DNA of 64,000 bases from assembly GCA_016000045.1 (NCBI GenBank), contig JAECQY010000003.1, positions 77,893 to 141,892 on the forward strand, written 5' to 3'. The notes beneath the pieces were generated by a model that had not been told where the DNA came from, searched no databases, and saw only the letters and a program-made list of their open reading frames with translations. Shown here piece by piece: positions 1-62,092 of this stretch. This stretch comes from Myxococcaceae bacterium (lineage in GTDB: Bacteria > Myxococcota > UBA727 > JABDBI01). The position numbers and the translations under genes are program-made. The stretch's first letter is position 1. Every line of letters starts with the position of its first letter.

Positions 1-1
1 C

Positions 2-616
2 ACCAAGCTACTTTGGATGCCTTTGCTGGCTTCACCGCTGGTGGCGTTTGCATTCTCTCGAGCCATTCGTCGGGTGACTCACAAAGCCATCGATCGAAAT
101 GATACGCTTGCACGCGTTGAAAAGGTTTTTGCTTGGATTCAAGTAATTACAGCTTGTTTTATGGCTTTTGCCCATGGCAGCAACGATGTCTCCAATGCGA
201 TTGGACCTGTAGCGGCGGTGATTGCGATCGCTTTTAGCCACCACATCGTCATTACTTCTCAGGTTCCATGGTGGTTGCTGGGAATGGGCGGTATTGGAAT
301 TGTGTTAGGGCTTGCGACTTACGGTCGAAAGGTGATTGAAACCATCGGTCATAGTATTACCGAGATTACGCCAACTCGGGGGTTTGCGGCTGAATTTGGA
401 GCCGCTTTTACGATTTTGGTCGGGAGTCACTTTGGGCTTCCGCTGAGCACCACACAAGTATTAGTCGGAGCGGTGATTGGAGTCGGGCTTGCAAGAGGCA
501 TTTCTGGACTTAATCTGATCGTGATTCGCCGAATTCTGAATTCGTGGATCATCACCATGCCAGCAACTTGTGCCATTTCCATGGTTCTAAACGGGTTGAT
601 CGGCCTCTTCATCTAG
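2..616 (+). CDS. Inorganic phosphate transporter, PiT family (3-prime portion; gene starts upstream of the window)
   Basis: The frame is open to the window edge. The product is a polytopic membrane protein carrying the FAHGSNDVSNAIGP motif typical of PiT/PHO4 transporters. Confidence 0.85.
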   Translation, partial: TKLLWMPLLASPLVAFAFSRAIRRVTHKAIDRNDTLARVEKVFAWIQVITACFMAFAHGSNDVSNAIGPVAAVIAIAFSHHIVITSQVPWWLLGMGGIGIVLGLATYGRKVIETIGHSITEITPTRGFAAEFGAAFTILVGSHFGLPLSTTQVLVGAVIGVGLARGISGLNLIVIRRILNSWIITMPATCAISMVLNGLIGLFI

Positions 617-949
617 CCCTTGAGCGTTTTCAGGCAGCATGTTCAGCACGGTATTGACATCCAGTAGAGCGTTCTGAGCTTGGAGTGCTAGATTCGTTTT
701 CAAGCGATTCAACTGTTCTTCTTTTTCAAAAAGCTGATCCGCTAAATTCATATTCAGCAAAAGAGACATCTGATGCGCAGAAGCTGTTTTCGCTGCTCGT
801 TTAATTTCTTCTAATTTGCTTGAGACAAAATTTGCAAGACCGTGCAGGTAAGCATCGGACTTTTCCGTCCGAACCTGGAAGCGTTGGCCTTGCAGAGTCA
901 CCTCAACTTTTCGTTTTTCGCCGCTATTCATGCGGGGAGAGCCTAACAC
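587..949 (-). CDS. zapA: Cell division protein ZapA-like
   Basis: A 120-aa ORF. The N-terminal strand pattern (VEVTLQGQRFQV) followed by a helical coiled-coil tail matches the ZapA layout as I recall it. An alternative start is at 931. The 3-prime end overlaps the convergent PiT gene by 30 nt. Confidence 0.6.
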   Translation of the reverse strand: MLGSPRMNSGEKRKVEVTLQGQRFQVRTEKSDAYLHGLANFVSSKLEEIKRAAKTASAHQMSLLLNMNLADQLFEKEEQLNRLKTNLALQAQNALLDVNTVLNMLPENAQGLDEEADQPV

Positions 950-1016
950 GTGGCAGATACGAAAAACAAGAGCGGTTTCTTCAATAAAACCAAGTTAACA
1001 TAATATTCATTATGGG

Positions 1017-1844
1017 TCACAAGATTTTTAACACGTCCGCCAAAATCGTGGTGACAATTTCAAAGGTGATCCAAAGAATAATGACCCATTCTTGCAAGAA
1101 CGAATAGCGCGTATTCACTTCTTGATTTAAAACCTGCACCAAATCTTTGAGCATATCCATCCGCTTATTAAGGACGTTAATTCGCGCAGTCACTTCTAAG
1201 TCCTGCGAAATCATTCGGTAAAGCGGCTCCAATTCCGAATGCTCCCAGAAAAAATCCGGCGTATCAAAAACATTGGAGTACAAGTTAATCGAGTTTCGCT
1301 CCAAAATAAGCTCGCCCATGACTCGTGTTAGCTGCTTTCTGGAAAGCTGTATGCGACCTTTGACCGCTAAGTCTTTGGGAATATCTTCCATGCTGGCGAT
1401 TCGCTTCGCCATGCGTTTTTCAAAGATTTCGAGCTTAACAGACTGAGCCAAACCGTGCGCAAAAGCCAATTTGGTAACCAAGTCGTTGTTTGGAATCGTG
1501 ATGTCATCTCTCAGAATCTTCGCGACGCGACCAATCGAGTAACGCGATTCTTCGATTTCGATTTCAGGCACCGGGTCGCTTTCAAAGGGCCGTAATCGAA
1601 ATAGGATCTCCTGCTCTTCAGCAATGCTAAGGCCCCACATCACCACGGTTCCATTCGAAAAATAGAAGACGTCCCCTTTGTCTTCTCCTTCATAGTGGTG
1701 AATCACGTGACTGCTTCGAAAATACGTCACCAAAGCCTTTTGCTCTTGCAAATGCTCCAGGAGCTCCTTCATCTGGTAACTGTTGGCTGTACAGTAGGCA
1801 CTGCACCGACGAGAACTTTGTGTTTCCGTAATTTCTACTTGCAT
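1017..1844 (-). CDS. RMD1/DUF155 family protein
   Basis: A 275-aa ORF with one C-terminal TM helix. Overall resemblance to DUF155 (RMD1/Sif2-like) proteins, recognised by eye only. Confidence 0.55.
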   Translation of the reverse strand: MQVEITETQSSRRCSAYCTANSYQMKELLEHLQEQKALVTYFRSSHVIHHYEGEDKGDVFYFSNGTVVMWGLSIAEEQEILFRLRPFESDPVPEIEIEESRYSIGRVAKILRDDITIPNNDLVTKLAFAHGLAQSVKLEIFEKRMAKRIASMEDIPKDLAVKGRIQLSRKQLTRVMGELILERNSINLYSNVFDTPDFFWEHSELEPLYRMISQDLEVTARINVLNKRMDMLKDLVQVLNQEVNTRYSFLQEWVIILWITFEIVTTILADVLKIL

Positions 1845-1872
1845 ATTTATTGCATTAATTTAAACACATTCA

Positions 1873-2727
1873 ATGACTATTGGCAAGAAAATCAGGCTCA
1901 TCGAATCTCGGGTTATCGAAGCGACTCAAGAAACTCAAGATACCTGGACCCTTCATTTTCAAACGGAGGACCGAAATTATTTGCCGGGTCAATTCTTGAG
2001 CATCGACCCCAAGCAATTTCCGGAACTCTCTGAACTCGTTGCCTACTTAGAAGCCAAAAAAGGAAAGCGTGAAGTGGTACGCGCTTATTCCATGGCTTCG
2101 GCACCTCATGAATCAACGGTATCAATTACCATCAAACCCGAAAGATTTTCCCCCGAACATGACGACTACCCCCCTCTCCTATCTCCATTTTTAGCTTCTG
2201 CTGCCATCAAAGGTCGCTTGGTTCGATTTTTAGGTTACACGGGGCCTTACACGCTGCCACTCGATCTACCTGAACACACCGATGAAGTTTTGCATCTAGC
2301 AGCTGGATCTGGCATTGTGCCCAATTTTTCTTTGTTAAAGGACCAATTAATTCAAAACCGGCATCCAGAAGTTCGGCATACTTTGGTTTACGTGAACAAA
2401 ACCGAAGAAGATACGATATTTCGCACGCAGATTGAACTTTTGGCTCATCAGTATCCGGATCGATTTCGTTATGTTCCTGTCCTAACCCGAGAACAAAAAG
2501 CAGGCGTCTTTTATGGAAGACCCACTCTTGACTTGATTCGATCGCTCATGAACGATCCCAATCGAGTCCTCGTCTACGCTTGCGGCTCAGAAGTCTCCAA
2601 GTGGCATAGAAAAAAAGCAGAAATTTCTGGCATTTCACCGACTCCAAGATTTATTGAATCGATTTCTCACATGATGAAAGAAATTGGAATCGATCGAAAG
2701 CGATTCAAATTTGAATCTTATGGATGA
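1873..2727 (+). CDS. Ferredoxin-NADP reductase-like FAD/NAD(P)-binding oxidoreductase
   Basis: Carries the RAYSMAS (RxYS FAD-binding) motif and an AAGSGIVP nucleotide-binding motif, at the length typical of the FNR-like family. Confidence 0.7.
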   Translation: MTIGKKIRLIESRVIEATQETQDTWTLHFQTEDRNYLPGQFLSIDPKQFPELSELVAYLEAKKGKREVVRAYSMASAPHESTVSITIKPERFSPEHDDYPPLLSPFLASAAIKGRLVRFLGYTGPYTLPLDLPEHTDEVLHLAAGSGIVPNFSLLKDQLIQNRHPEVRHTLVYVNKTEEDTIFRTQIELLAHQYPDRFRYVPVLTREQKAGVFYGRPTLDLIRSLMNDPNRVLVYACGSEVSKWHRKKAEISGISPTPRFIESISHMMKEIGIDRKRFKFESYG

Positions 2728-2809
2728 AATTTTCTAGATAATTTAAACATTGTTATAGATTTAATTTTTGTTTATATTTTTATAAAAATAAAAAGTAAAA
2801 ATCCCATCT

Positions 2810-4642
2810 TCAACGCACGCACCGAACAAAGCGCGCATCGCCGACGCTATCTGAGCCGACGAGTCCAAAATCGAAATACACGCTCCACGCATAGGACGGG
2901 GACACACACGAATAACGCGTTGATGTCCAAAAGGTGCCCTGCGGTGTACTCGGAAAAGCCGTCGAGTTGATGGTCGGACCCGGATATGCCACGTGAACAT
3001 CCAGAAGCGTCGATAACTCTTTGATATTCGGAAGACGCCAGCTCAAACCATCCAGATTCAAACCCGTACAATAAGCCTGGGCCCCACCCCAGTTGTAAGT
3101 TCCAGAAACCGTTCGCTGCCAAATCAAGCCCGTCACCGTGTCTAACACCTGTGTGCTGTTAAAAGTATAACGATCCACCTCTCGAACCGCCGACAAGGGT
3201 CGCACACAGCGCGTAAAGCCACTCGCAGGCACTGAAGAACAACTACTATAACCCTGGCTACAAACAAGGCCCGCGTAACCGGCACCGTTGCCATAACTCA
3301 CCCACCAGGCACTCTCAGAGTAACCCTGTAAAGCGTCGGAGGACCAATAGTAACTGCTTTGCGTGCCTGGGAAGAAATCCAGATCCATGCTGGGACCAGC
3401 GCAATTCATCGTATAATCCACCAAGGTTTGAAGTTCCACGTGTGTGGGCAAACGCCAGTCTCCAAGCCCAAACTCAAACAAATTAGCACAATAGGCCTTG
3501 GAAGCTGTCCAATTGCCCGCAGGCGCACTCCCTACCTTTTGCCACTGCAAACCCGTCATTCGATCCGTGATAACCCCTGGAACCGATTCAAGGTAGCGAC
3601 CCGTTTGATTGGCGTTATCTCGATAGACACCGGTTGTCACTTGCCAATTCGCCCACTCAGGGTTCCAAACCACGAGAGCACTGGGGCTGAGGGTCGGGCT
3701 GAACGACTGGGTAGAGCTCAAAGTTTGGGACGCACTGAGAGTCCTGCTTGAGCTTCCACTAATCGACTCCGCATCACTCAGCGTAGGAGTATACTTTCGA
3801 CTCAAGCTTAAGCTCTCGGTGAAAGAATGACTGAGCGTACCCAGCAAACTCAAAGTATTTCTGGAAGAGGCTTTGCTCAAGGTTTGACTCCGTGTTGGTG
3901 CTTGTGAAACGCTTATAGACGCAGTTTGAGAGGCACTGAGAGTCCTGCTTGAGCTTCCCGTGACCGACTCTGCATCACTCAGGGTAGGAGTGTGCTTTTG
4001 ACTCGGGCTTAAGCTTTGGGCAAAAGAGTGACTGAGCGTACCCAGCAAACTCAAAGTATTCCGAGAAGAGGCTTTGCTGAGGGTTTGGCTGAGCGTTGGT
4101 TTTGTTTGCGAAACACTCGCAGACACGGTGCACGTTGGCATCCGATCGAACAAACGAACCGCATAAGACTGGGAGGATAACGATGTCTTACCCGTCCAAT
4201 CCGCGTAAAAACTCACCAATAAAATCGCGCTTTCGGTAATTTGATGCTCGTATTCCAAAGGAAGCAAGGAACTTTGTCCGCAACTCTCCGGTCTGCCCAA
4301 AGCGGTGGTGGAGTTGATCTCACACAAAACGTGCTCGATGTGAGTGTTCATGAAAATAGAACAATTGGCCACAAATTGGCCCGTATAATCCGGCATCGCT
4401 TGAATCGCCGGGGTCAGCTCGGCAAACAAGGCCTTCAGTCCGGTCGAAAACAATTGTTTTTGCTGGGCGGCAGGCAATGTCTGGTTCGAAACGAGCTGCG
4501 TTAGTGCCTGATTCGCCACGGTATCCGTTATCTGGCTTTGATTAAGCCAGGCAGCAATGGCGGCTTGTCCCAAAATCAAGAATACTAAAAGCCTTGCCGG
4601 CCTAAAGCACCGTGCTTGGGTTTTTAGATTTTTCCTAATCAC
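2810..4642 (-). CDS. Secreted DUF1566/Lcl-C-terminal-like (C-type-lectin-like) repeat protein, paralog 1 (N-domain + Ser/Thr linker + modules A and B)
   Basis: Has a signal-peptide-like N-terminus (LLVFLILGQAAIAAW) and a Ser/Thr-rich linker. Two modules follow with the pattern TGLQWQK..W..A..YC..L....DWRLP...EL..L ... RCVR. Paralogous to 6473-8059 and 8320-10683. Confidence 0.85.
   Translation of the reverse strand: MIRKNLKTQARCFRPARLLVFLILGQAAIAAWLNQSQITDTVANQALTQLVSNQTLPAAQQKQLFSTGLKALFAELTPAIQAMPDYTGQFVANCSIFMNTHIEHVLCEINSTTALGRPESCGQSSLLPLEYEHQITESAILLVSFYADWTGKTSLSSQSYAVRLFDRMPTCTVSASVSQTKPTLSQTLSKASSRNTLSLLGTLSHSFAQSLSPSQKHTPTLSDAESVTGSSSRTLSASQTASISVSQAPTRSQTLSKASSRNTLSLLGTLSHSFTESLSLSRKYTPTLSDAESISGSSSRTLSASQTLSSTQSFSPTLSPSALVVWNPEWANWQVTTGVYRDNANQTGRYLESVPGVITDRMTGLQWQKVGSAPAGNWTASKAYCANLFEFGLGDWRLPTHVELQTLVDYTMNCAGPSMDLDFFPGTQSSYYWSSDALQGYSESAWWVSYGNGAGYAGLVCSQGYSSCSSVPASGFTRCVRPLSAVREVDRYTFNSTQVLDTVTGLIWQRTVSGTYNWGGAQAYCTGLNLDGLSWRLPNIKELSTLLDVHVAYPGPTINSTAFPSTPQGTFWTSTRYSCVSPSYAWSVYFDFGLVGSDSVGDARFVRCVR
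2828..2938 (-). other. Hypervariable VR-like tip of module B, paralog 1
   Basis: A hand codon alignment of four copies (2828-2938, 6491-6601, 8338-8448, 9208-9318) shows variation concentrated in codon positions 1-2 with position 3 fixed as C/T. Both flanks are near-identical. Confidence 0.6.
3719..4090 (-). repeat. Tandem duplication of a 201-bp (67-aa) Ser/Thr-rich unit inside paralog 1
   Basis: The protein segment SQTLSKASSRNTLSLLGTLSHSF..TPTLSDAES..GSSSRTLSASQT occurs twice with period 67 aa. The DNA anchor tcaaagtatt is at 3850 and 4051. Confidence 0.85.
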
Positions 4643-4763
4643 GATTCGCCATTGCTAGCGCAAGAGAGAAAGCAAGAAAAGGCTTTGGAGTTCTAAATGG
4701 GATATCAAGAAGCCGCATGGCGTTCTGCTTGATGGAACCCCTGAACCATGAGATACTGCCCCT

Positions 4764-6317
4764 ATGCGCTTTTTTAACACAGCCGGGCCGATTGTCCCCA
4801 GTGACCACTATTTTGTTCCCGGTCGTTCGCATGAATCCGAAATCAGGAGCCTGATAGAACAAAAAAAATATTTCGTGCTTCATGCGCCTCGGCAAACAGG
4901 CAAAACCTCGGGCATCTTAAGCTTGACGGATAAAATCAATCAAGAAGGTCAATATACTGCCCTTTATGTCAATGTAGAACCAGCACAGGCCATGCGAAAT
5001 CATGTGAAGGATGCGATTCGGATGATTGTAGACCAAATTCGGTTGGGGTTATTAGCCTATTTCCCGAATGATCCGGTTTTAAGTTATTTCGATTCGGCTA
5101 GAAAATACGAAGATAGTACTGGCAATGAGTTGGGGGCCTTTCTCCAATTCTGGGCATCTCAGCGCCCAAAACCGATTCTATTGTTTATCGATGAAATAGA
5201 TTCTTTAGTGGGTGATTCATTGATTGCCGTATTGAGGCAGTTACGAGCTGGCTATAGCCAAAGACCTCGCCTATTTCCCTCTTCTGTTTGCCTGATTGGG
5301 GTTCGCGATATCCGAGATTACCCCATCTGGTCTGAAGCCACTCAAGCCGTTATTCAGGGAGGCAGTGCCTTTAATATCAGTGCCAAGAGTCTATTTTTAG
5401 ATACTTTTCATTTTGAGCAAGTCGCTGATTTGTACGCTCAACATACGCGTGAAACGGGTCAGGTATTTGAGGAAGATGCCGTTCGATACGCCTTTGAGCA
5501 AACCGGAGGACAGCCATGGTTAATCAATGCCATGGCCTATCAAGCGTGCTTTGACGATATTAAAGACCGCACGCAACCCATTACGAAAGCCGTGTTCGAA
5601 CGGGCCAAAGAGGTTCTGATCGCCCGGCGAGACACCCATTTAGATGTTCTGATCGATCGCTTGCGAGAACCCAGGATTCATCGAGTTATTAGCGCGATTT
5701 TGTTGGGTGACCCTGTCTTTGACTTACCTCAGGACGATTTGTCTTACTCCATCGACTTGGGCTTGATTAAACGAGATGAGAACAAAAACTTGGTCATTGC
5801 CAATCCCATCTATCAAGAAATCATCCCCCGAGAACTCACCCATGCTATCCAAGCCTCCATGGTCCAACAGACCGCTTGGTATCTAAACTCGGATGGCACT
5901 TTGAACATGCAGAAGTTGCTGGAAGCCTTTGTGCAGTTTTATCGAGAAAATTCAGAAATGTTGGTTCCGAACATGGGCTATAAAGAAGCGGGGCCGCATC
6001 TGCTCTTAATGGCCTTTCTGCAACGAGTCATCAACGGAGGCGGAAAAATCCATCGTGAGTACGCATTAGGGCGTAAACGTGTGGATCTTTTGGTGGAGTT
6101 TAAACACCAACGTTTTGTCATTGAAACCAAGATTGATTACGGCCCTAAAACATTAGTCGATGGTTTGGAACAGACCGCAGATTACATGGATAAAAACAAT
6201 TCCACCCAGGGCCACCTCTTGTTGTTTGACACCAAGAGTCAAAAGACTTGGGATGAAAAGATTTATCAAAAGGCCCACTCAGTTGGCTTGCGAAGCATTC
6301 AAGTATGGGGGCTATAG
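4764..6317 (+). CDS. Predicted AAA-ATPase with C-terminal PD-(D/E)XK nuclease-like domain
   Basis: The N-terminus is MRFFNTAGP...HY, followed by a Walker A (APRQTGKTS) and Walker B (LLFIDEID). The C-terminus RVDLLVEF...FVIETK fits a PD-(D/E)xK motif. The layout resembles AAA-ATPase_like plus PDDEXK_9 proteins. Confidence 0.75.
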   Translation: MRFFNTAGPIVPSDHYFVPGRSHESEIRSLIEQKKYFVLHAPRQTGKTSGILSLTDKINQEGQYTALYVNVEPAQAMRNHVKDAIRMIVDQIRLGLLAYFPNDPVLSYFDSARKYEDSTGNELGAFLQFWASQRPKPILLFIDEIDSLVGDSLIAVLRQLRAGYSQRPRLFPSSVCLIGVRDIRDYPIWSEATQAVIQGGSAFNISAKSLFLDTFHFEQVADLYAQHTRETGQVFEEDAVRYAFEQTGGQPWLINAMAYQACFDDIKDRTQPITKAVFERAKEVLIARRDTHLDVLIDRLREPRIHRVISAILLGDPVFDLPQDDLSYSIDLGLIKRDENKNLVIANPIYQEIIPRELTHAIQASMVQQTAWYLNSDGTLNMQKLLEAFVQFYRENSEMLVPNMGYKEAGPHLLLMAFLQRVINGGGKIHREYALGRKRVDLLVEFKHQRFVIETKIDYGPKTLVDGLEQTADYMDKNNSTQGHLLLFDTKSQKTWDEKIYQKAHSVGLRSIQVWGL

Positions 6318-6472
6318 CACACTCCTTTGTCTAGGCCAAATTAAGCCAATTTAAAATGAGTATCATACGAATTTTCCAACAGATGAACAAATTTTACGCA
6401 TATTTCTAAATGTCTTCATAGGTTTTATTTTTGTCTATATTTTTATAAAAATAAAAAGTAAAAATCCCGTCT

Positions 6473-8059
6473 TCAACGCACGCAGCGAACATAGTAGGGA
6501 GGACTGATGCCATACGTGCTGACGTTGCCATAACCGAAATACACGACCCACGCACCGGACGGGGACGTGCAAGAATAAGGCGTTGATGTCCAAAACCAAC
6601 TCTGAGGCGTGCTTGGAAAAGCCGTCGTGTTCATTGTTGGACCCGGAGATGCTACGCGAACATCCAGAAGCGTCGACAATTCTTTGACATTGGGAAGACG
6701 CCAGCTCAAACCGTCCAGATTCAAACCCGCACAATAAGCCTGTGCAGAACTCCAGTTATAGGTTCCAGAAACCGTTCGCTGCCAAATCAAGCCCGTTACG
6801 GTGTCCAGAACCTGCGTGTTGTTAAAAGTATAACGATCTATCTCTCGATCTGCTGACGAGGGCCGCACACAGCGTGTAAAGCCACTCGCCGGCACTGAAG
6901 AACAACCACCATAACCCTGGCTGCAAACAAGACCTGCGTAATAGGAACCGTTGCCGTAACTCACCCACCAGGCACTGCCTGGGTAACCCTGTAAAGCGTC
7001 GGAGGACCAATAGTAACTGCTGGTTTGAGTGCCTGGGAAAAAATTCAGATCCAGGCAGGGGCCAGCGCAATCCATCGTGTAATCGACCAAGGTCTGAAGT
7101 TCCACGTGTGTGGGCAAACGCCAGTCCCCAAACCCAGACTCAAGCAAATCAGCGCAATAGGCCTGGGCAGCCGTCCAATTGCTAGCAGGTGCACTCCCTA
7201 CCTTTTGCCACTGCAAACCTGTCATCCGATCCGTGATAACCCCTGGAACGGATTCAAGATAGCGGCCCGTTTGATTAGCGTTGTCTCGATAGACACCCGT
7301 TGTTACTTGCCAATTCGCCCATTCAGGATTCCAAACCACCTCATCGCTCGTGCTCAAAGAGTGCGACAGATTAGCCGAGTCTGTTGCGACTGAATCGCTT
7401 GGAGTAATTGATTGAGTAACAGTTTGGCTAAGCGACACGCTCCTGCTCGACAACAAACTCTCTGTAAGACTAATCGTTGAGCTAGCAGAACCCGTGGTGC
7501 TATTATTCATCCGGCTTACGGAATCTGTGTCGGTTTGAGTGCTGTGGCCACTCATGGAATTTGACTGTGTCACAGATTGTGAAAGCGTCGATGGCAATTT
7601 GTCATACAACCAATACATTACCTGGGGATGCTGCACAGGGGCCAGACCCACAATAATGCGTGCCTGGAGAATATTACTCTTGTGTAACTGCGTCAAATAC
7701 TCCGCTGGAAACGGTTGCTCTGCTTCGCAGAATTTCGAAATTTGTCGAACCTCTTCAAATTGCGCATCACATACAATCTGGTTAATTTCAGCATCAAAAA
7801 ACACAGAGCAATTTGAACTAAAAGGCTTCTTGCAACAACCCGGTAAGGCTCCGAGATGAGGCCCAATAAGAGCCCATAATCCTCTCATGGCATTTTGTGT
7901 CACGAGTTCTTTGGATAAAGAGCTTGTTTGATTCTTGAGCTGCGTCAGATTTGAAAACTGTTGATTCAAAAATGCAGAGAAGCCATTTCGAAGCACAAAG
8001 CCTGCTTGAACCGGTAAAAACAGCAATAACAGCCATGAACCCAAACACCGATTCATCAT
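6473..8059 (-). CDS. Secreted DUF1566/Lcl-C-terminal-like repeat protein, paralog 2 (diverged N-domain + Ser/Thr linker + modules A and B)
   Basis: Has a signal peptide (LLLLFLPVQA). Modules A and B are roughly nine-tenths identical to paralogs 1 and 3 at the DNA level by eye, except at the C-terminal tip. The ~50-bp 3-prime flank is shared with paralog 1. Confidence 0.85.
   Translation of the reverse strand: MMNRCLGSWLLLLFLPVQAGFVLRNGFSAFLNQQFSNLTQLKNQTSSLSKELVTQNAMRGLWALIGPHLGALPGCCKKPFSSNCSVFFDAEINQIVCDAQFEEVRQISKFCEAEQPFPAEYLTQLHKSNILQARIIVGLAPVQHPQVMYWLYDKLPSTLSQSVTQSNSMSGHSTQTDTDSVSRMNNSTTGSASSTISLTESLLSSRSVSLSQTVTQSITPSDSVATDSANLSHSLSTSDEVVWNPEWANWQVTTGVYRDNANQTGRYLESVPGVITDRMTGLQWQKVGSAPASNWTAAQAYCADLLESGFGDWRLPTHVELQTLVDYTMDCAGPCLDLNFFPGTQTSSYYWSSDALQGYPGSAWWVSYGNGSYYAGLVCSQGYGGCSSVPASGFTRCVRPSSADREIDRYTFNNTQVLDTVTGLIWQRTVSGTYNWSSAQAYCAGLNLDGLSWRLPNVKELSTLLDVRVASPGPTMNTTAFPSTPQSWFWTSTPYSCTSPSGAWVVYFGYGNVSTYGISPPYYVRCVR
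6491..6601 (-). other. Hypervariable VR-like tip of module B, paralog 2
   Basis: Same hand alignment as for 2828-2938. Confidence 0.6.
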
Positions 8060-8319
8060 TCACACCCCTTCTCGAGGATGTGAAATTGAATCAAATAAGT
8101 ATTATATTTAAATATAAAATAATTAAAATTGTCATACATCTCTAATTCCGAAATAGGAAGAATTATAAATGCAAGCTCAAATCTAAAGCAATTCTCTCGA
8201 CACACTCTAAGTGTTCTCCATAAACGTGACAACCACTATTCCATCCAATAACTCACACGAAATTGCGTGCTCATCAAGGACTCGACATCTACGGCGACGC
8301 AAAGGGCCAGAATCCCTCC

Positions 8320-10683
8320 TCAGCGCACACAACGGACAGAGTAATTAGAGCCTAGGCCAGCGTTGATCACAGCACCTCTGAGGAAATAGACCAACCAGGC
8401 GTACAACGAAGGCGCACACGAATAAGGCGTTGATGTCCAAAATGCAGCCTGAGGTGTGCTCGGAAAAGCCGTCGTATTGATCGTCGGACCCGGGTATGCC
8501 ACGCGAATATCCAGGAGCGTCGACAATTCTTTGACATTGGGAAGGCGCCAGCTCAAACCATCCAGGTTTAAACCCGCACAATAAGCCTGTGCCGAACTCC
8601 AGTTATAGGTTCCGGAAACCGTTCGTTGCCAAATCAAGCCCGTCACGGTGTCCAGAACCTGTGTGTTGTTAAAGGTATAACGATCCACCTGTCGATCCGC
8701 CGATGAGGGTCGCACACAACGGGCAAAGCCACTCGCAGGCACTGAAGAACAACCACCATAACCCTGGCCACAAACAAGGCCAGCATAACCGGCACCGCTA
8801 CCGTAACTCACCCACCAGGCACTGCCCGGGTAACCCTGCAAAGCGTCGAAGGACCAATAGTAACTGCTGGTTTGAGTGCCTGGGAAAAAATCCGGGTCCA
8901 CGCTGGGCCCAGCGCAACTCATCGTATAATCGGCCAAGGTCTGAAGTTCCACATGCGTGGGCAAACGCCAGTCCCCAAATCCAGACTCAAACAAATCTGC
9001 GCAATAAGCTTGGGCAGCCGTCCAATTGCCCACAGGCGCACTCCCTACCTTTTGCCACTGCAAACTGGTCATCTGATCCGTGATAACCCCTGGAACCGAT
9101 TCAAGGTAGCGGCCCGTTTGATTGGCGTTATCTCGATAGACGCCGGTTGTTACTTGCCAATTCGCCCACTCGGCATTGTAAACCTGAGGAGAACACACAC
9201 AACGAACATAGAGCGTATTACTGATGCCATACGTGGCGACACTACCATAACCGAAATTCACATTCCACGCGCGGGACGGGGACGCACACGAATAAGGCGT
9301 CGACGCCCAAAACCCAGTCTGATACGTGCTTGGGAAAACCGTCGTGTTGATGGTCGGACCCGGAGATGCCACGCGAACATCCAGAAGCGTCGATAATTCT
9401 TTGATACTGGGAAGACGCCAGCTCAAACCGTCCAAGTTTAAACCCGCACAATAAGCCTGAGCCGCGCTCCAGTTGTAAGTTCCGGAAACCGTTCGTTGCC
9501 AGTTCAGGCCCGTCACGGTATCCAGAACCTGTGTGTTGTTAAAGGTATAACGACCTACTTCTCGATCTACCGACCAGGGCCGCACACAACGGACAAAGCC
9601 GCTCGCAGGCACTGCAAAACAACCACCGCTATAACCCTGGCTACAAACGAGGCCTGCGTAATAGGCACCGCTGCCGTAACTCACCCACCAAGCACTCCCA
9701 GGGTAACCCTGTACAGCGTCGGAGGACCAATAGTAACTGCTGGTTTGAGTGCTTGGGAAAAAATCCCGATCGACGCTGGGACCAGAACAATCCATCGTAT
9801 AATCCACCAAAGTCTGAAGTTCCACGTGTGTGGGCAAACGCCAGTCTCCAAACCCAGACTCAAACAAATTGGCACAATAGGCCTGGGCAGCCGTCCAATT
9901 GCTAGCAGGTGCACTCCCTACCTTTTGCCACTGCAAACCGGTCATCCGATCCGTGATAACCCATGGAACCGATTCAAAATAGCGGCCCGTTTGATTGGCG
10001 TTATCTCGATAGACGCCGGTTGTCACTTGCCAATTCGCCCACTGGGGGTTCCAAACCACCGGAGCGCTTGGGCTTGTGGTAGGACTTAGAGAGATAGACT
10101 CGGTAGGGCTCAAGGTTTGGCTGAGCGCTGGTCCTGTCTTTGAAACACTCGCAGACACGGTGCACGTTGGCATCCGATCGAACAAACGAACCGCATAAGA
10201 CTCGGAGGATAACGACGTCTTACCCGTCCAATCCGCGTAAAAACTCACCAACAAAATCGCGCTTTCGGTAATTTGATGCTCATATTCCAAAGGAAGTAAG
10301 GAACTTTGTCCGCAACTCTCCGGTCTCCCCAAAGCGATCGTGGAGTTGATCTCGCACAGAACCTGCTCGATTTGAGTGTTCATGAAAATGGAACAATTGG
10401 CCACAAATTGGCCCGTATAATCCGGCATCGCTTGAATCGCCGGAGTTAACTCGGCAAACAAAGCCTTCAATCCGGTCGAAAACAATTGTTTTTGCTGGGC
10501 GGCAGGCAATGTCTGGTTCGAAACGAGCTGCGTTAGTGCCTGATTCGCCACGGTATCCGTTATCTGGCTTTGATTAAGCCAGGCAGCATTGGCGGCTTGT
10601 CCCCAAATCAAGAATGCTAAAAGCCTTGCCGGCCTAAAGCACCGTGCTTGGGTTTTTAGATTCTTCATAAGCCATCTGCGCAT
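8320..10683 (-). CDS. Secreted DUF1566/Lcl-C-terminal-like repeat protein, paralog 3 (N-domain + short linker + modules A-B-A-B)
   Basis: A 787-aa ORF. The N-terminal ~185 aa are nearly identical to paralog 1, and the A+B module pair is duplicated in tandem. The true start is probably at the MKNLKTQ codon (10668). The 5-prime end overlaps the upstream membrane-protein gene. Confidence 0.85.
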   Translation of the reverse strand: MRRWLMKNLKTQARCFRPARLLAFLIWGQAANAAWLNQSQITDTVANQALTQLVSNQTLPAAQQKQLFSTGLKALFAELTPAIQAMPDYTGQFVANCSIFMNTQIEQVLCEINSTIALGRPESCGQSSLLPLEYEHQITESAILLVSFYADWTGKTSLSSESYAVRLFDRMPTCTVSASVSKTGPALSQTLSPTESISLSPTTSPSAPVVWNPQWANWQVTTGVYRDNANQTGRYFESVPWVITDRMTGLQWQKVGSAPASNWTAAQAYCANLFESGFGDWRLPTHVELQTLVDYTMDCSGPSVDRDFFPSTQTSSYYWSSDAVQGYPGSAWWVSYGSGAYYAGLVCSQGYSGGCFAVPASGFVRCVRPWSVDREVGRYTFNNTQVLDTVTGLNWQRTVSGTYNWSAAQAYCAGLNLDGLSWRLPSIKELSTLLDVRVASPGPTINTTVFPSTYQTGFWASTPYSCASPSRAWNVNFGYGSVATYGISNTLYVRCVCSPQVYNAEWANWQVTTGVYRDNANQTGRYLESVPGVITDQMTSLQWQKVGSAPVGNWTAAQAYCADLFESGFGDWRLPTHVELQTLADYTMSCAGPSVDPDFFPGTQTSSYYWSFDALQGYPGSAWWVSYGSGAGYAGLVCGQGYGGCSSVPASGFARCVRPSSADRQVDRYTFNNTQVLDTVTGLIWQRTVSGTYNWSSAQAYCAGLNLDGLSWRLPNVKELSTLLDIRVAYPGPTINTTAFPSTPQAAFWTSTPYSCAPSLYAWLVYFLRGAVINAGLGSNYSVRCVR
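8338..8448 (-). other. Hypervariable VR-like tip of terminal module B, paralog 3
   Basis: Same hand alignment as for 2828-2938. This is the most divergent of the four copies. Confidence 0.55.
9208..9318 (-). other. Hypervariable VR-like tip of internal module B, paralog 3
   Basis: Same hand alignment as for 2828-2938. It ends in VRCVC and reads straight on into the next module A (SPQVYNAEWANWQV). Confidence 0.55.
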
Positions 10684-12067
10684 CTTTCAACACTTCTCCG
10701 AAGCTCTGGAGAGTTGGATTGGACTCGAACAACTCTTCTGCAGTCGTTAATTCGGTTGCTTCTGGGATAAAATCCAAATCTTCAAAATTTAAATCAATGG
10801 GTGTTTGTGCGCGAGTAGAAGGGGCCCAATCGGCCTCTAAAGCAGGTAGGCTTCCCTGCAAGGGGCCTGCCATTTCGGTCAGCAAAATCCCTGCGGCTTC
10901 GCTCGAAGAAGAAGACTTGGCCAAGGCGTTAAGCTTTTTCGAAGGGCGAAAATGCTCGTACCAACTTTTGAAACGCAGCCCAATATCAAATAGAGTCTTC
11001 AGCATCATTGCGTATTCGGTGACTACCACGATGGTTTGAGTAACGCTTTTTATCTTCTGCTGCGTCTCCTCCGATGCCGTGGCAGAAGCAATGGCTTGTG
11101 TGCTGAGAGCTATCGCTTGCAAAGCCGCGACGGCGGCATAAAATCTTTGAGCATGTTGATTTTGATTGGGCCACAACGCGAACTGAGACAATGCGTAAGC
11201 ATCGTAAACAGCCATCCCCGCCCACAACAAATTTCCACAGTCTGCTTGCAACGCCTGATACGATTGAAGAGCTCCGACAGCCATCGAAGTCATAAGCTCA
11301 ATCAAAATATACCATTCTCGATCCTTTCCATAGGTTTCAAACAGCTCGCCATATTTCGCCAGCCAGGCTGAAGATGGGGGCATATCTACCCACTCTTTTT
11401 CATGAGCATCCCAGCGAGCCTTGAAAAATCGAGGATGCAAGGCCACGCCTGCGACACTCGTTCCCATGAAAGACAGAATCAAAGAGCCTGATCCTACACA
11501 GCCTTGAAGAATATTCCCTTGTCGGATCAAGGCAAAAGACGAAGAGGTGGTGGGAGAGATCAAAAACAAAACCGGCAACACCAAACTTCCTGGAAAATGA
11601 GCTCGAGAAGCTCCGAGTTTGTAGGCGACAGCGCTCCAGATTCCCACGGCTCCTGAAAGCAACAGCCAATTTCCGACGACTGCTCCAAGGTGATATTGCA
11701 AGTTACCACTCCCAAGCGATAATTGCGTTGGGCTTTCTGACCACCCTAAAGAACCCGTTTCGGGTGGCAAACTGTCTTCGCAAGACAGCAGGCTAAGCGT
11801 TAAACCGGCTCTGGCATTTTGCGCCACTTGACTCGGGCCCACCGAAGTCACCGTACTTAACAAAGTCGACACGCTGCTGCCTGTTTTTGTGGCTTGCGTC
11901 AAAGCAACCGGCAAAGCAGGCTCTGGAAAAGGGCTCAATTCATCCCAGATCAAGCAAACCCTGGATTCTGGTCGAGGACATGGAAAATCCGTCGCTCCAA
12001 AAACAAGTGCACTCCCAAACACCCAACTGAAGGCAACAATCCGTTTCATACACTCCGAAACCTGCAA
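10634..12067 (-). CDS. Polytopic membrane protein of unknown function (family member 1), co-oriented with and overlapping paralog 3
   Basis: A 477-aa ORF with an N-terminal signal-like segment (start possibly MKRIVAF), several hydrophobic helices and an acidic C-terminus. Clearly paralogous to 63006-64000 (for example SLGSGNLQYHLGAVVGNW versus SLGSTDLHYTNGAVFGNW). I recognise no family. Confidence 0.7.
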   Translation of the reverse strand: MQVSECMKRIVAFSWVFGSALVFGATDFPCPRPESRVCLIWDELSPFPEPALPVALTQATKTGSSVSTLLSTVTSVGPSQVAQNARAGLTLSLLSCEDSLPPETGSLGWSESPTQLSLGSGNLQYHLGAVVGNWLLLSGAVGIWSAVAYKLGASRAHFPGSLVLPVLFLISPTTSSSFALIRQGNILQGCVGSGSLILSFMGTSVAGVALHPRFFKARWDAHEKEWVDMPPSSAWLAKYGELFETYGKDREWYILIELMTSMAVGALQSYQALQADCGNLLWAGMAVYDAYALSQFALWPNQNQHAQRFYAAVAALQAIALSTQAIASATASEETQQKIKSVTQTIVVVTEYAMMLKTLFDIGLRFKSWYEHFRPSKKLNALAKSSSSSEAAGILLTEMAGPLQGSLPALEADWAPSTRAQTPIDLNFEDLDFIPEATELTTAEELFESNPTLQSFGEVLKDAQMAYEESKNPSTVL

Positions 12068-21881: not shown

Positions 21882-22914
21882 CAAGCCAACGCCTCGTTTC
21901 TACCTTGGCTCACGAGCAGGGTATGGGATTCGTTTTGAAAGCGATCAGCCGGTCTTAGGATCTTTTGGCTTGCTTCGATTTGATTCAACCAAAGGCTCTG
22001 ATGCGGATTGGGAACCTTTTGGCAATTCACGTTTCATGGTTCCCATCGAGGTCCAAACTGCGAATCCAGTTCGATCGAACCGAAGGTCCATCGCGAAGCC
22101 TCACCAGAATCCAGCCACTTCGATCGAGTCCGATTGGGAGCAACCTTTTCAAGAAGCCTATGAACTCTTAAAAAATCAATCCCTTCGCAAACTCGTTTTA
22201 GCTCGCAAAAGAATCTACTCTCTGAGCAGTGAGCCAAATCCATTGGATTTGTTGCAAGGTCTCATCGAAGCCTTTCCCACGTGCACGCCCTACTATTTCG
22301 AACCCCAGCCTGGAATCGTCTTTCTAGGCAGCTCTCCAGAGCAACTTTACCGGCGTCAATCTCAAAATTTTTACACCGAAGCTCAAGCGGGAAGCATGCC
22401 ACGAGGACTCTCACTCGAAGAAGATCAACAAAATCAACAGATTCTTGAAACCAACGACCGATTCATTCATGAACACGAAATCGTCGTGAACAACATTCTT
22501 CTTAGCCTTCAAAGCCTCTGCTTAGATTACCGGATCACTCTGAGGCGCGAAGTGGTCAAACTTCCCAACATCATGCACCTTCGAACTCAGTTCCAAGGAG
22601 TATTAGCTCCATCGATCACCGATGAACATATTTTAACCGCTCTGCATCCAACCGCTGCTGTTTGCGGATGGCCGATTGTTGAGAGTCGAAAATCCATTTC
22701 CCAGATAGAGTCCTTTGATCGTGGATTTTATGCCGGTACAATGGGTTATATCGGTCCTATGGAAAGTGAGTTCTATGTTGCCATACGAGGAGCGCTACTT
22801 CACTTTCCGAATTTAAGCGCTTTTGCAGGAGCGGGTCTGGTTCCAGGCTCGATTTCAAATCTGGAATCGAATGAAATTAGCCATAAAATGTCATTTTGGG
22901 AAAAACTACTATGA
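21856..22914 (+). CDS. menF: Isochorismate synthase (MenF-type)
   Basis: Has chorismate-binding C-terminal motifs (LHPTAAVCGWP, FDRGFYAGTMGY, AGAGLVPGS). I placed the start at the internal Met (MSLINW) to avoid a 150-nt overlap with ubiE. Confidence 0.8.
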   Translation: MSLINWLRDKPTPRFYLGSRAGYGIRFESDQPVLGSFGLLRFDSTKGSDADWEPFGNSRFMVPIEVQTANPVRSNRRSIAKPHQNPATSIESDWEQPFQEAYELLKNQSLRKLVLARKRIYSLSSEPNPLDLLQGLIEAFPTCTPYYFEPQPGIVFLGSSPEQLYRRQSQNFYTEAQAGSMPRGLSLEEDQQNQQILETNDRFIHEHEIVVNNILLSLQSLCLDYRITLRREVVKLPNIMHLRTQFQGVLAPSITDEHILTALHPTAAVCGWPIVESRKSISQIESFDRGFYAGTMGYIGPMESEFYVAIRGALLHFPNLSAFAGAGLVPGSISNLESNEISHKMSFWEKLL

Positions 22915-24329
22915 GCTCATCCTATTTCTCACCGATTTCACCCTCAATCCTGCAACACATACGAGATCCCCAAAGCCTTGTTCGAGATCCAAGCCAAGAG
23001 ATTTATACCAATCGAAGCCTGGATCTCAGTTCCATCGAAGCCATTGGCTTTGATATGGACTATACTCTCGTCAACTATCACAAGAAACCCATGGAACAGC
23101 TCCAGTACGAGATGACCCTTGAGTATCTCGTAAAGACATTGGGCTATCCAGCGGATCTGTATCAACTTCAGTACGATCCGAATCTAAGTATTCGAGGATT
23201 GGTGGTCGATAAGCGTTATGGCCTTCTTTTAAAAATGGATATGCATGGGCAAGTTTGGAGAGCCAAGCACGGTTATCGAGCGCTCGCCAGCGAAGAAATC
23301 AAGGATCTCTATCAAAATCATAAGATCAAAATCACTTCAGACTTCGCTTCGCTCGACACCTTATTTGCGATGCCCGAGGCCTCCTTGTACTGCGATCTCG
23401 TCCATTTTTTTCGTCATCAATCTCCGAATTTCGCTCAAATTTTCGAAGATATTCGACACTCGATCGATACGATTCACTCAAATGGTTCGCTCAAATCCAT
23501 CATTCGAAAAGATTTGCCTCGCTTCATCGAAACACACAACGATATTGCTCTCACGCTTCATAAACTACGTTCATCGGGTAAAAAGCTCTTTCTATTAACC
23601 AACAGTCACTTCGACTACACCGAAACCGTGATGAGCTATTTGTTGGGAAACTGGATGCCCTATTTTGATTACGTCATCACAGACAGTCGAAAGCCTGCTT
23701 TCTTTACGGAAGGAGCTCCTTTTAAAAAAATATCTGAGAAGTCTTCGCATCCTATCTATGAAGGTGGCAATATTGCTGAATTTGAAGAAATGGCCGGCCT
23801 AGTCGGTGGGAAGGTTCTTTACGTAGGCGATCACATCTACGGAGACATTGTGCGAAGCCGCAAAGAAACTCTTTGGAGAACTTGCCTGATCGTCGAAGAG
23901 CTTCCACGAGAAATTGAATTATCAATGCGTTTCACACCTGAACTCGATCAACTCAGACAGATTGATCAAGAACGCATCACCCTAGATAAGGAAATTGGCC
24001 TTCATCGGGCTCTACTCGCCTATTTGGATTCCACCGGACTTCAGGCAGAGGCCGTTCGACTGCGGAATGAAATGGAGGCCGCCAAAAAACACCTGGGGAG
24101 CCTTGATCGCAAAATGGATCTCGTCCAAGACGACCTTGAAAGGCGATTTCATCCATTTTGGGGCGAACTCTTCTACGAACACCACGACTTAAGCCGCTTT
24201 GGTTCTCAGGTAAAAGCTTATGCTTGCATCTACACTTCTCGTATTACCAATTTCCTCCCTTACAGCCCCATGCATCATTTCCGAAAGCGAGCCGAGTTGA
24301 TGAGTCACGATCTGCCATTTCGATTCTAG
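22896..24329 (+). CDS. HAD-IG family 5-prime-nucleotidase (cN-II-like)
   Basis: IYTNRSLDLSSIEAIGFDMDYTLVNY matches the 5_nucleotid family N-terminus with the DMDYT HAD motif I. GDHIYGDI is HAD motif III-like. Confidence 0.8.
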   Translation: MGKTTMSSSYFSPISPSILQHIRDPQSLVRDPSQEIYTNRSLDLSSIEAIGFDMDYTLVNYHKKPMEQLQYEMTLEYLVKTLGYPADLYQLQYDPNLSIRGLVVDKRYGLLLKMDMHGQVWRAKHGYRALASEEIKDLYQNHKIKITSDFASLDTLFAMPEASLYCDLVHFFRHQSPNFAQIFEDIRHSIDTIHSNGSLKSIIRKDLPRFIETHNDIALTLHKLRSSGKKLFLLTNSHFDYTETVMSYLLGNWMPYFDYVITDSRKPAFFTEGAPFKKISEKSSHPIYEGGNIAEFEEMAGLVGGKVLYVGDHIYGDIVRSRKETLWRTCLIVEELPREIELSMRFTPELDQLRQIDQERITLDKEIGLHRALLAYLDSTGLQAEAVRLRNEMEAAKKHLGSLDRKMDLVQDDLERRFHPFWGELFYEHHDLSRFGSQVKAYACIYTSRITNFLPYSPMHHFRKRAELMSHDLPFRF

Positions 24330-24482: not shown

Positions 24483-25100
24483 CTAGGCCTCCTCGCAATT
24501 GTAGATGTCAAGTAATTCGTTGACAAGAGTTGGCAAATTCCCCTGGGGTCTCTTCCCTGCTAATCCCTGATGAGGACGCAACTTGTTGTAGTATAATAAG
24601 TACTTAAAAAGCTCTTTTTTTAAAGAATCAATGGATTCAAAATAGGTTCCTTCAATCAGGTCCTCATTCAACGTCTTCCAAAAGCGCTCTACTTTACCGT
24701 TCGTCTGCGGGCGGTAGGGTCTCGTGTAACGATGTTTGATGCCCAATTCCATTAACAATCTTTCAAAAGGATGGTTCTTCTTGCTAGCCGATTTTTGGGG
24801 ACCAAACTCAGGACTATTATCCGTGATGGCCTCAGCAAATCGAATATCAAAGCGGTCACCTATTTGGTTCAAGCAATGAAGGGTTGAAAACATGACCGAT
24901 AGCGCTGTGATGTCGTCCATAACCTCAGCCCAAGCCACTCGAGTACAACTGTCAACAACACAAACTAAATCGTAGCGTTTGGGGTCATTGACGACCGTGT
25001 CTTTAGATAAGTGATGGCAATCGATGTGCGCAAGCTCGCCCGCTTTTTCCTTGATGATTTTTCGTTTTTCTTCACGCATGGCAGGAGTTTTCCGATTCAT
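24483..25100 (-). pseudogene. IS481/IS3-type transposase fragment (integrase catalytic core only, N-terminal HTH missing)
   Basis: Has the rve core HIDCHHL...VVDSCTRVAW...DNSPEF...RPYRPQTNGKVERFWKTL. It lacks the ~100 aa normally preceding the core and abuts another IS at about 25140. Confidence 0.75.
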
Positions 25101-44652: not shown

Positions 44653-45489
44653 CTAGTCGTACAATAGGGCATCCAGCTCTTCCAAGTGTCTCAAAAGTGT
44701 TGACCACGCTTGTTCAAATGAATCTCTCTTGCCAGCAAGACTAACTGAGTTCCAGGCATGCTTCAGTACCCACGGATTCAAAACAGAAATATGCTGAAAA
44801 AACGAGGGTGGGATGGGAGTGTTTCTATTTTGAAAAGTGGTTTGTATTGAGGTCTCTAATCTTTTAGAATTTTTGCAGATGGAGAGCAGTTTAAGCAAAT
44901 CAAAGACATCCTTTGCTCTGGAATTACTTTCTGATCGCCGGCAAAGAGTTTCCAGTTTCTCAGCCAAGATGCTTTCAGGCGGGTAGACTCGCCATGAAAT
45001 TTCGGAATTTGTTTGGATGAGTGGAATCATTTTTTGAGTTTTCGGAATTTTAGGAATGCGATCTCCCAAGCCAATATCCAAATGTAGACGTGAAAGTTTG
45101 TGAATTTGTCTTGTCAGCGGAATACTTCCGATCTGAAAAGCACAATCAAACCGATATCCACCCAGTTCATGGTGAGTAACAAGTTCTTTTATGGTGATAT
45201 CGCCATACCAGAGATCATCCTTGAGATCGGTTCTCAGGGCTTCTGTTACGCAGTTTATTAGACTCGATTTGGATAACGAGAGGGCAGAAGCATCTATATC
45301 GCGCGTAAATCGTGGGTGAGAAATTGTTTTAAATAAAACAAATCCACCTTTGAAAATGACATGCTTTCTTAAAATAGAGTGATGCTCAAGGCGTGCCACG
45401 ATACGTTCTAAGCCTAGAAGGACCCGAAGTTGATTAATGTGCATGGAATTGGTTTTTGCCAGATCCATTAGTTTCTGATGAATGCTCAC
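44653..45489 (-). CDS. Nucleotidyltransferase AbiEii/AbiGii-family toxin (type IV TA)
   Basis: Has a GGFVLFK...FTRDIDA motif typical of DUF1814/AbiEii. Its start overlaps the upstream AbiEi stop by 4 nt. Confidence 0.8.
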   Translation of the reverse strand: MSIHQKLMDLAKTNSMHINQLRVLLGLERIVARLEHHSILRKHVIFKGGFVLFKTISHPRFTRDIDASALSLSKSSLINCVTEALRTDLKDDLWYGDITIKELVTHHELGGYRFDCAFQIGSIPLTRQIHKLSRLHLDIGLGDRIPKIPKTQKMIPLIQTNSEISWRVYPPESILAEKLETLCRRSESNSRAKDVFDLLKLLSICKNSKRLETSIQTTFQNRNTPIPPSFFQHISVLNPWVLKHAWNSVSLAGKRDSFEQAWSTLLRHLEELDALLYD

Positions 45490-62026: not shown

Positions 62027-62092
62027 TCGTGAACTCCTTGCCATCGTGCTACGGAGACCATTTAGCAGTGTCAATACCGTGTCTGGGTCCAA

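Follow-up and report, generated by a model that had tools for sequence, protein, structure and literature searches.

Introduction

Proteins of the DUF1566 type are a recurrent class among the targets of diversity-generating retroelements (DGRs). Variable repeats (VRs) of this type make up the CLec2 class, which accounts for 14% of 372 curated DGRs and is exemplified by LdtA of Legionella (Wu et al. 2018, PMC5758913), and DUF1566 is the commonest DGR target domain in human microbiomes (PMC4159848). Seven remote targets have been described in Treponema (PMC4891356, PMC5758913) and eight tandem targets in a DGR of Stenotrophomonas, while internal VRs, genomes with several DGRs and elements that act in trans have already been documented as well. 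An accessory gene (Avd or HRDC) is not universal, being found in 74% of DGRs (PMC5758913), and large metagenome DGR surveys state that remote targets escape detection (PMC8144416). The subject of the present study is a family of DUF1566-type lectin genes, three of which are located on a 64-kb stretch of bacterial DNA (hereafter, the window), and in particular the hypervariable C-terminal tips of their so-called B domains, four of which fall in the window.

An earlier note on this DNA claimed that the four tips vary in the way expected of DGR adenine mutagenesis, and named DUF1566 as a recurrent class of DGR target, which is indeed documented (PMC5758913, PMC4159848). Every internal test that was run agrees with the first claim. 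With a probability of about 0.8, we consider the tips to have been written by DGR-type adenine mutagenesis, involving a putative reverse transcriptase (RT), one or more putative template repeats (TRs) and, presumably, an activity that persists to the present day. The DNA read consisted of the window and of other contigs of the assembly GCA_015999675.1, for a total of about 131 kb of the genome.

Variation in the tips of the B domains

Each B domain ends with the residues VRCVR or VRCVC, whose last codon is located, on the minus strand, at 2813, 6476, 9193 and 8323 in the four window copies. The VR was taken as the final 22 codons ahead of VRCVR, and the stretch of 19 hypervariable codons runs through 2828-2884, 6491-6547, 9208-9264 and 8338-8394 (minus strand). 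The four tips lie on the minus strand where the earlier note had placed them, and the seven sets of NNY codons (N, any base; Y, pyrimidine) listed there are all present as written.

Among the four window copies, 25 of 38 columns at codon positions 1 and 2 are variable in the tip, compared with 34 of 204 in the flank, so that the excess at these positions, which the note had described by eye, is significant relative to the rest of the domain in a formal codon-position test (Fisher p = 2.6e-9); the corresponding figures for position 3 are 11/19 and 47/102 (p = 0.45). Counted over the four A+B units, the number of variable columns among 20 tip codons is 14 at position 1, 10 at position 2 and 13 at position 3, against about 3, 2 and 7 per 20 codons outside the tips. 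The 81-nt core contains 33 invariant columns, rather than the 32 counted previously, and only one of them is A, as had been stated; in the rest of the B domain, 45 of 225 invariant columns are A. The invariant tip skeleton occurs exactly four times in the window, and never in 100 shuffles.

The codon pattern was followed over 11 closely related copies from the same genome (see below), the divergent locus L009 providing the twelfth tip. About 12 of the 19 codons following a conserved Trp are hypervariable, as is the codon two before the Trp, and the scaffold W-x-V-x-F-x-x-G-x-V...G-[IVLM]...VRCVR is retained. Five hypervariable codons are NNC or NNT in 11/11 copies and show all four bases at positions 1 and 2; the Tyr codon is TAT without exception in two columns, and TAC in one other. 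Adenine is present in 29 of the 30 variable position-1/2 columns, where it is often the commonest base, and is missing from nine variable columns, eight of which are third positions alternating C, T and G. None of the 13 VR columns that are invariant over all copies is A. The hypervariable positions are occupied by Y, N, G, S, L, D, T, V, A, F, I, P, R or C; K, E, W and H are absent, Q appears once, and the four M all belong to the I/V/L/M column. No indel or stop codon is present in the VRs of the 12 copies. The hypervariability and its adenine-centred character at positions 1 and 2 are directly visible in these alignments; comparison of the VRs with one another further suggests, indirectly, that substitution was confined to template adenines, mostly at positions 1 and 2 of AAY codons.

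Source genome and number of tips

A protein search found close relatives of the lectin proteins solely in the NCBI metagenome-assembled genome (MAG) GCA_015999675.1, labelled 'Myxococcaceae bacterium'. Contig 16 of this assembly corresponds to positions 1-4554 of the window with nine mismatches, all of which are in the first 200 nt of the contig, a stretch where the assembly end is chimeric between paralogs. Because contig 16 and this part of the window are otherwise identical, GCA_015999675.1 and the window represent one genome, and therefore the eight extra tips found on L001, L002, L003 and L009 are paralogs within that genome. Further family members occur in other genomic contexts on contigs 5, 14, 18 and 19. 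The genome contains 12 B tips (four in the window and eight elsewhere), spread over at least eight genes; seven of the tips are terminal, and the other five lie within A-B-A-B(-A-B) arrays. The NCBI contigs with a family member (L001, L002, L003, L005 and L012) all end inside that member, one of the ends being a paralog chimera. A search for contigs on record that encode paralog 2 or P0007 came back empty, and a literature search on the assembly accession and the locus tags returned nothing relevant.

The lectin family interrupts the MAG assembly at nearly every copy, and this, together with the chimeric contig end, could lead one to suspect that the tips are an assembly artefact, namely the chimeric consensus of a mixed population. 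However, the two assemblies are base-identical over paralog 1, tip included, and agree at the protein level on the internal tip of paralog 3, and each copy has an unbroken reading frame and genomic surroundings of its own, so that an artefact is barely credible.

Backbone groups and their uncoupling from the flanks

The tips can be sorted by their backbones into a group alpha (2828-2884, 6491-6547 and 9208-9264 in the window, with L001:3366, L002:615 and L009) and a group beta (8338-8394 in the window, with L002:1485 and L003:11342). In the flanks, divergence at position 3 ranges from 0.16 to 0.39 in every pair of copies; in the tips it is bimodal, being 0-0.16 within groups and 0.4-0.58 between them. 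In the three beta pairs, the 19 codons show 0, 2 and 2 differences at position 3 (both cases of two involving A), positions 1 and 2 differ at 16-17 of 38 columns, and the third positions of the flank at 25-28 of 102. As to L002:1485 and L003:11342, their 12 hypervariable codons differ at 17/24 columns at positions 1 and 2 and at 0/12 at position 3 (p = 4.5e-5, or 0.0025 after correction for 55 pairs), with 28/102 differences at position 3 of the flank. In terms of the proportions of non-synonymous (pN) and synonymous (pS) differences, the beta VRs have pN 0.36-0.42 and pS 0.055-0.106, the pS of the flank being higher (0.32-0.36), and the within-group pN/pS of the VRs is 4-8. Adenine accounts for 1/33 invariant VR columns in group beta vs 51/245 in the flank (p = 0.015), and for 0/25 vs 40/209 in group alpha (p = 0.010); conversely, it is found in 79% (beta) and 78% (alpha) of the variable VR columns, as compared with 52% and 57% in the respective flanks.

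The twelfth tip belongs to P0013, a divergent DUF1566 paralog (L009:51-1145, contig JAECQV010000019.1) with 41% identity to paralog 2. Its flank differs from that of all other copies at 46-51% of the bases and at 0.54-0.66 of third positions, yet its tip has the alpha backbone and differs from the alpha copies at only 4-5 of 19 third positions (p = 0.005). The codons for VRCVR show 1-3 differences in 15 bases from the alpha copies, and the approximately 18 nt past the P0013 stop codon (TGAAAACGGGGATTTT) match those past the terminal copies of the window (TGAAGACGGGATTTTT). Over the whole set, tip backbone distance shows no correlation with flank distance (Mantel r = -0.006, p = 0.58), and the hypervariable distance is 0.58 in pairs with near-identical backbones vs 0.61 in the other pairs. 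The uncoupling of backbone and flank is therefore a matter of observation, and it indicates, along with L009, that a block of about 80-100 nt has a history of its own, in which it was kept faithful at non-A positions and randomised at A positions.

If all copies came from a single template, A would have to stand at 44 of 57 columns, and eight third-position columns that vary without any A would still be left over, so that one template is insufficient; the caveat of the earlier note, that the number of variable columns is high for one template, holds, at least two template backbones being needed. The simplest reading is that of at least two putative template variants plus some ordinary mutation. 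The templates that can be reconstructed by VR–VR comparison are rich in AAT and AAC codons, as known TRs likewise are (PMC5758913). They read approximately TGG AAY GTG AAT TTC AAT AAT GGM AAC GTC AAC ACG AAT AGC ATC AGY AAT ACN AAC TAT GTT CGT TGY GTG CGT for alpha, and TGG ATG GTC AAT TTC AAC AAW GGT AAT GTG AAC AAC AAT GGC ATA GGC AAT AAT AAC TAT GTC CGT TGT GTG CGC for beta.

These data also bear on diversifying (positive) selection, by which point mutations in a ligand-binding loop of paralogous adhesins would have been favoured with no template involved. Such selection would suit surface-type proteins with a lectin fold and a position-1/2 excess limited to the exposed tip, but it should not have left position 3 of saturated codons untouched while positions 1 and 2 changed at most sites (0/12 vs 17/24), nor would it be expected to lower the synonymous divergence of the VR below that of the flank, to centre the variation on A, or to provide a paralog that is about 50% divergent with the same tip backbone. 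In addition, it would not account for the avoidance of K, E, Q and W, residues that a single transversion produces from N, D, H and C. We regard this explanation as quite improbable.

Lectin genes and boundaries of the variable repeats

The three genes of the window (Table 1) each encode a protein with a signal-peptide-like N terminus, an N-terminal domain of about 170 amino acids (of which there are two types), a linker rich in Ser and Thr, and one or two pairs of Lcl_C domains, A+B. The Lcl_C/DUF1566 family (PF07603) scores 180.7, 185.6 and 344.6 bits in the three genes, with a cut-off of 34.9, and the match extends through the final residue of the B domain. The AlphaFold2 model of the A+B unit of paralog 2 (predicted local distance difference test, 79; predicted template modelling score, 0.81) was submitted to Foldseek, which returned tandem C-type lectin-like domains, including the C-terminal domain of Legionella Lcl (8q4e, probability 1.00), as well as the Bdellovibrio fibre tip 8oks and snake-venom lectins. 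Membership in DUF1566 is directly observed and confirmed, and so, on the strength of the model, is a predicted C-type lectin fold for both A and B domains; the C-type-lectin-like domain recognised in the earlier note agrees with Pfam, model and Foldseek alike. Because of their signal peptides and Ser/Thr-rich stalks, the proteins are probably surface or secreted ligand-binding proteins.

The linker of paralog 1 contains a 201-nt tandem duplication (3722-4100, minus strand, 85% identity), and linker length varies among the paralogs. Long antisense open reading frames (ORFs) are present in each copy of the lectin module, at 8872-9396, 9496-10089, 7025-7393 and 3359-3751 on the plus strand; most likely, they are not genes but a by-product of the codon composition of the repeat.

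The block GTY-CGN-TGY-GTG-CGY directly follows every VR, and about 18 nt more are conserved past all terminal copies, including that of the ~50%-divergent L009, and partly so in the internal copies. No GC-rich hairpin was seen after the tips. The tips of the A domains, which served as internal control, are conserved, with many invariant A's and ordinary synonymous changes only; since they are conserved, the hypothesis of diversified A-domain tips was rejected. Two variable codons located upstream, after 'PQ' (2933-2938 in paralog 1), were likewise rejected as part of the VR; their position 2 is never A, and their position 3 is freely variable.

Table 1. Lectin genes, variable repeats (VRs), 3' blocks and control tips, in window coordinates
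Feature	Position	Strand	Size	Sequence	Evidence and remarks
Paralog 1	2810-4642	minus	610 aa		ORF and Pfam PF07603 (2 stretches, E = 1.3e-53); signal peptide, N-terminal domain type 1, Ser/Thr-rich linker, Lcl_C A, Lcl_C B
Paralog 2	6473-8059	minus	528 aa		ORF and Pfam PF07603; signal peptide, N-terminal domain type 2, Ser/Thr linker, Lcl_C A and B
Paralog 3	8320-10683	minus	787 aa		ORF and Pfam PF07603 (4 stretches, E = 2e-104); N-terminal domain type 1 followed by four Lcl_C in the order A-B-A-B; two B tips, the first internal and the second terminal
VR of paralog 1	2828-2893	minus		YAWSVYFDFGLVGSDSVGDARF	backbone group alpha
VR of paralog 2	6491-6556	minus		GAWVVYFGYGNVSTYGISPPYY	backbone group alpha
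Internal VR of paralog 3	9208-9273	minus		RAWNVNFGYGSVATYGISNTLY	backbone group alpha; most AAT codons among the window copies
Terminal VR of paralog 3	8338-8403	minus		YAWLVYFLRGAVINAGLGSNYS	backbone group beta
3' block, paralog 1	2792-2827	minus		GTT CGG TGC GTG CGT TGA AGATGGGATTTTTAC	candidate signal resembling an initiation-of-mutagenic-homing (IMH) site
3' block, paralog 2	6455-6490	minus			conserved
3' block, paralog 3, terminal copy	8302-8337	minus			more divergent past the stop codon
3' block, paralog 3, internal copy	9172-9207	minus			coding (VRCVC-SPQVYN), runs into the next A domain
A-domain tip of paralog 2	6863-7000	minus			internal control; equivalents at 3200-3337, 8710-8853 and 9580-9723

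Weighing of a probable retroelement origin

Two sets of observations weigh against a DGR origin of the tips, one in the tips themselves and the other in the search for an RT and a template. As to the former, when all pairs of copies are taken together, the tips have pN 0.44 and pS 0.44, the flanks pN 0.078 and pS 0.36, that is, the all-copy pN/pS of the VRs is about 1.0 and their pN approaches the pS of the flanks. Alone, this would suggest relaxed constraint, the tip being an unconstrained loop in neutral drift between paralogs. Such a loop, however, would hardly have passed through 12 copies with no indel, stop codon or frameshift and with the alternating scaffold W-x-V-x-F-x-x-G-x-V strictly retained, and neither the within-group pN/pS values, nor a hypervariable distance that is saturated even at near-zero backbone distance, nor the A-specific pattern would be accounted for. 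The pairwise structure of the tips rules out relaxed constraint, to which we assign very little probability on the evidence as a whole.

It should also be noted that the backbone groups were defined after viewing the data, the evidence free of that choice being the L009 test and the all-copy statistics. Three copies (L002:2352, L001:first and L001:2496) fall outside both tight groups, and about 25-35% of the backbone columns differ between groups, the figure for alpha and beta being about 30%. Several codons are NNR (R, purine), such as TTG, ACG, AGA and CAA, and the terminal copy of paralog 3 (8338-8394), which the earlier note had singled out as breaking the rule of a pyrimidine at position 3, does contain several non-NNY codons (TTG, AGA and CTA). 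Because of the heterogeneous backbones and the NNR codons, a DGR origin of the tips requires one to assume a degree of ordinary mutation, the use of several templates or events that are old.

The second set concerns the RT and the template that the earlier note had proposed to look for in the genome, neither of which was found in the window or in the roughly 131 kb of the genome. The YxDD motif is absent from the six frames of the window and of L001-L003, L005 and L007-L009, and no Pfam match to an RVT family was obtained among the called genes of L001-L003, L005, L009 and L012; a Pfam search of about 45 window ORFs retrieved nothing but housekeeping genes and the like, among them an AbiEii toxin and a fragment of an IS3 integrase. 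A TR skeleton search allowing up to three mismatches matched only the four tips in the window, where the best result of an adenine-tolerant sliding search had 24 non-A mismatches in 99 nt, and skeleton and adenine-tolerant matching revealed no TR copy in the other loci of the same genome. Larger collections were scanned with the skeleton, none of them including the source genome or a relative with a cognate TR: the species-representative genomes gave one chance match, in Thalassotalea (L004), in a gene that is not of the DUF1566 type, the JGI metagenomes one chance match in an archaeal membrane protein (L006), and the IMG/VR viral contigs none. Any RT would have to lie more than about 10 kb away from the window tips on the left and more than about 55 kb away on the right, so that these tips would be remote targets at best. 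A possible explanation is that the RT/TR cassette may lie on a short unbinned contig, because a TR would be yet another member of the repeat family at which the contigs break.

Another explanation is that the VRs are fossils, that is, a former DGR rewrote the tips, and its RT or TR has since been lost or inactivated, leaving only ordinary mutation at work. Besides the failure to see an RT and a TR in the DNA inspected, this would explain the heterogeneous backbones, the presence of some NNR codons and the columns that vary without A. On the other hand, the beta copies differ at position 3 in only 0-2 of 19 codons, against about 27% in the flanks, a near-zero backbone divergence which implies that the last rewriting was recent relative to the divergence of the paralogs; moreover, the DNA inspected amounts to only about 131 kb of the genome. 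Fossil VRs appear unlikely, though they deserve to be taken seriously.

We also see a slight chance that the genome has no resident DGR-clade RT and TR, and that at least 12 tips were rewritten in trans by a visiting phage- or plasmid-borne element, or by an undescribed adenine-targeted templated process; in a milder version, one RT would use at least two diverged templates on distinct subsets of remote targets. A tblastn search with the B domain found no match among phages and, among plasmids, only DUF1566 genes unrelated to DGRs (Vibrio, Leptospira and Hydrocarboniclastica plasmids), and the search for related loci among viral contigs gave one weak match with neither an RT nor a VRCVR-type tip.

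Other features of the window

Apart from the lectin family, the Pfam matches in the window are those of ordinary chromosomal genes. A gene inserted between paralogs 1 and 2 in the opposite orientation (4764-6317, plus strand) encodes a 517-amino-acid AAA-type ATPase (weak matches to AAA_35, AAA_22 and AAA_16), whose link to the tips is not evident. Two paralogous proteins without any Pfam match (33% identity over 280 amino acids, E = 8e-42) are encoded at 10634-12067 and 63006-63974, both on the minus strand; the former gene overlaps the start of paralog 3, and may therefore be co-transcribed with the lectin genes. Near the right end, two copies of a broken element, 81-93% identical and about 2.13 kb apart (60071-60926 and 62093-63057), contain short ORFs resembling a transposase remnant (…RWRIENETFNTLKNQGYE…) with no Pfam match, and between them lies a Cys-rich, secreted-looking ORF of 180 amino acids (61550-62092).

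Two tandem repeats of 81 nt, 95% identical, were found at 27640-27801 (plus strand), within an ORF (26249-28249) for a 666-amino-acid protein with an LRAT/NlpC-like domain. At 44653-46175 (minus strand), the gene for a nucleotidyltransferase toxin of the AbiEii type (E = 5e-25) adjoins an upstream partner of 229 amino acids that has no Pfam match; the two probably form a type IV toxin-antitoxin pair. Finally, a protein of the eukaryote-type cytosolic 5'-nucleotidase family (PF05761, E = 2e-140) is encoded at 22896-24329 (plus strand), and its gene adjoins an IS3-type integrase fragment (rve_3) at 24483-25100 (minus strand).

Discussion

The locus behaves like a DGR target family of the DUF1566 type. 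Because the RT and the TR were sought locally and did not turn up, it is classified here as a probable, rather than a demonstrated, DGR. To the best of our knowledge, DGR mutagenic retrohoming is the only described process that copies non-A positions faithfully while randomising A positions, and it is taken as the mechanism. A TR RNA encoded elsewhere in the genome would be copied by an error-prone RT, which would put random bases opposite the template adenines, and the resulting cDNA would replace about 66-80 nt at the 3' end of each B domain, probably anchored by the GTY-CGN-TGY-GTG-CGY block and the approximately 18 nt beyond it. In this way, about 12 template codons of the AAY (or NAY, ANY) type would become NNY in each copy, making roughly 15^12 binding surfaces possible per tip on an unchanged C-type-lectin scaffold. 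So far, at least 12 tips in at least eight genes would have been rewritten, from at least two template variants.

Confirmation of the retroelement would mean that an uncultured bacterium commits no fewer than eight secreted tandem-lectin genes, with at least 12 VRs, to programmed hypervariation, a number of targets at the high end of known DGRs, with internal VRs and probably more than one template. In addition, this family shows that VRs can be recognised by comparison of paralogs alone, with neither an RT nor a TR at hand, through three features: NNY codons whose third base is fixed, conserved columns of which hardly any is A, and a backbone uncoupled from the flanks.

It is useful to consider first the homologues that are not DGR targets. 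Non-DGR Lcl_C proteins, such as Legionella Lcl (8q4e), the fibre tip of Bdellovibrio Bd2740 (8oks) and the DUF1566 genes of Vibrio and Leptospira plasmids, share Pfam family and fold with the proteins described here, but have no hypervariable AAY-patterned tip. More distant homologues in this same lineage (P0007 and P0009) have tips with K, E and W and with A-bearing scaffold codons.

Among known DGRs, the link to the CLec2 class (PMC5758913) shown here is the shared Pfam assignment, DUF1566. LdtA of Legionella pneumophila is, like the present proteins, an exported protein with the VR at the C-terminal end of a DUF1566-like C-type-lectin fold, AAY-type template codons, and a few conserved 3' residues presumed to be IMH-encoded. 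In the Legionella DGR, however, the RT and the TR sit in the same cassette as the target, and the VR is single, whereas the present genome has at least 12 VRs, of which five are internal, and no RT/TR within about 55 kb on one side and 10 kb on the other. The prototype Mtd/Brt system of Bordetella phage BPP-1 has the logic that is proposed here, i.e. adenine-specific mutagenic retrohoming at the 3' end of a C-type-lectin gene with A-free scaffold codons; yet its target is a phage tail-fibre gene in a compact cassette with a GC-rich IMH and a hairpin, while the targets considered here are chromosomal cellular genes, and no GC-rich hairpin was seen.

Multiple DGR loci, multi-VR targets, incomplete loci and diversification in trans would be shared with Thiohalocapsa PB-PSB1 (Dore et al. 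2024, PMC10907252), a multicellular bacterium with putative antigen-sensor/conflict targets in which RTs and TRs have been identified, unlike the secreted tandem-lectin targets of the present genome, for which RT and TR are unseen. The DGR of Treponema denticola (TvpA and seven remote targets; PMC4891356, PMC5758913) resembles the present case in having scattered targets far from the RT, apparently served by one element, but its targets have CLec domains of the formylglycine-generating enzyme (FGE)-sulfatase type and all match one TR, as opposed to DUF1566 domains with at least two backbones. As DUF1566-type DGR targets, multi-target DGRs and remote targets are already known, the novelty of the lectin tips described here is modest; of interest are the large number of VRs, the tandem-domain arrays in which some VRs are internal, the evidence that more than one template was used, and a signature that can be recovered without the template.

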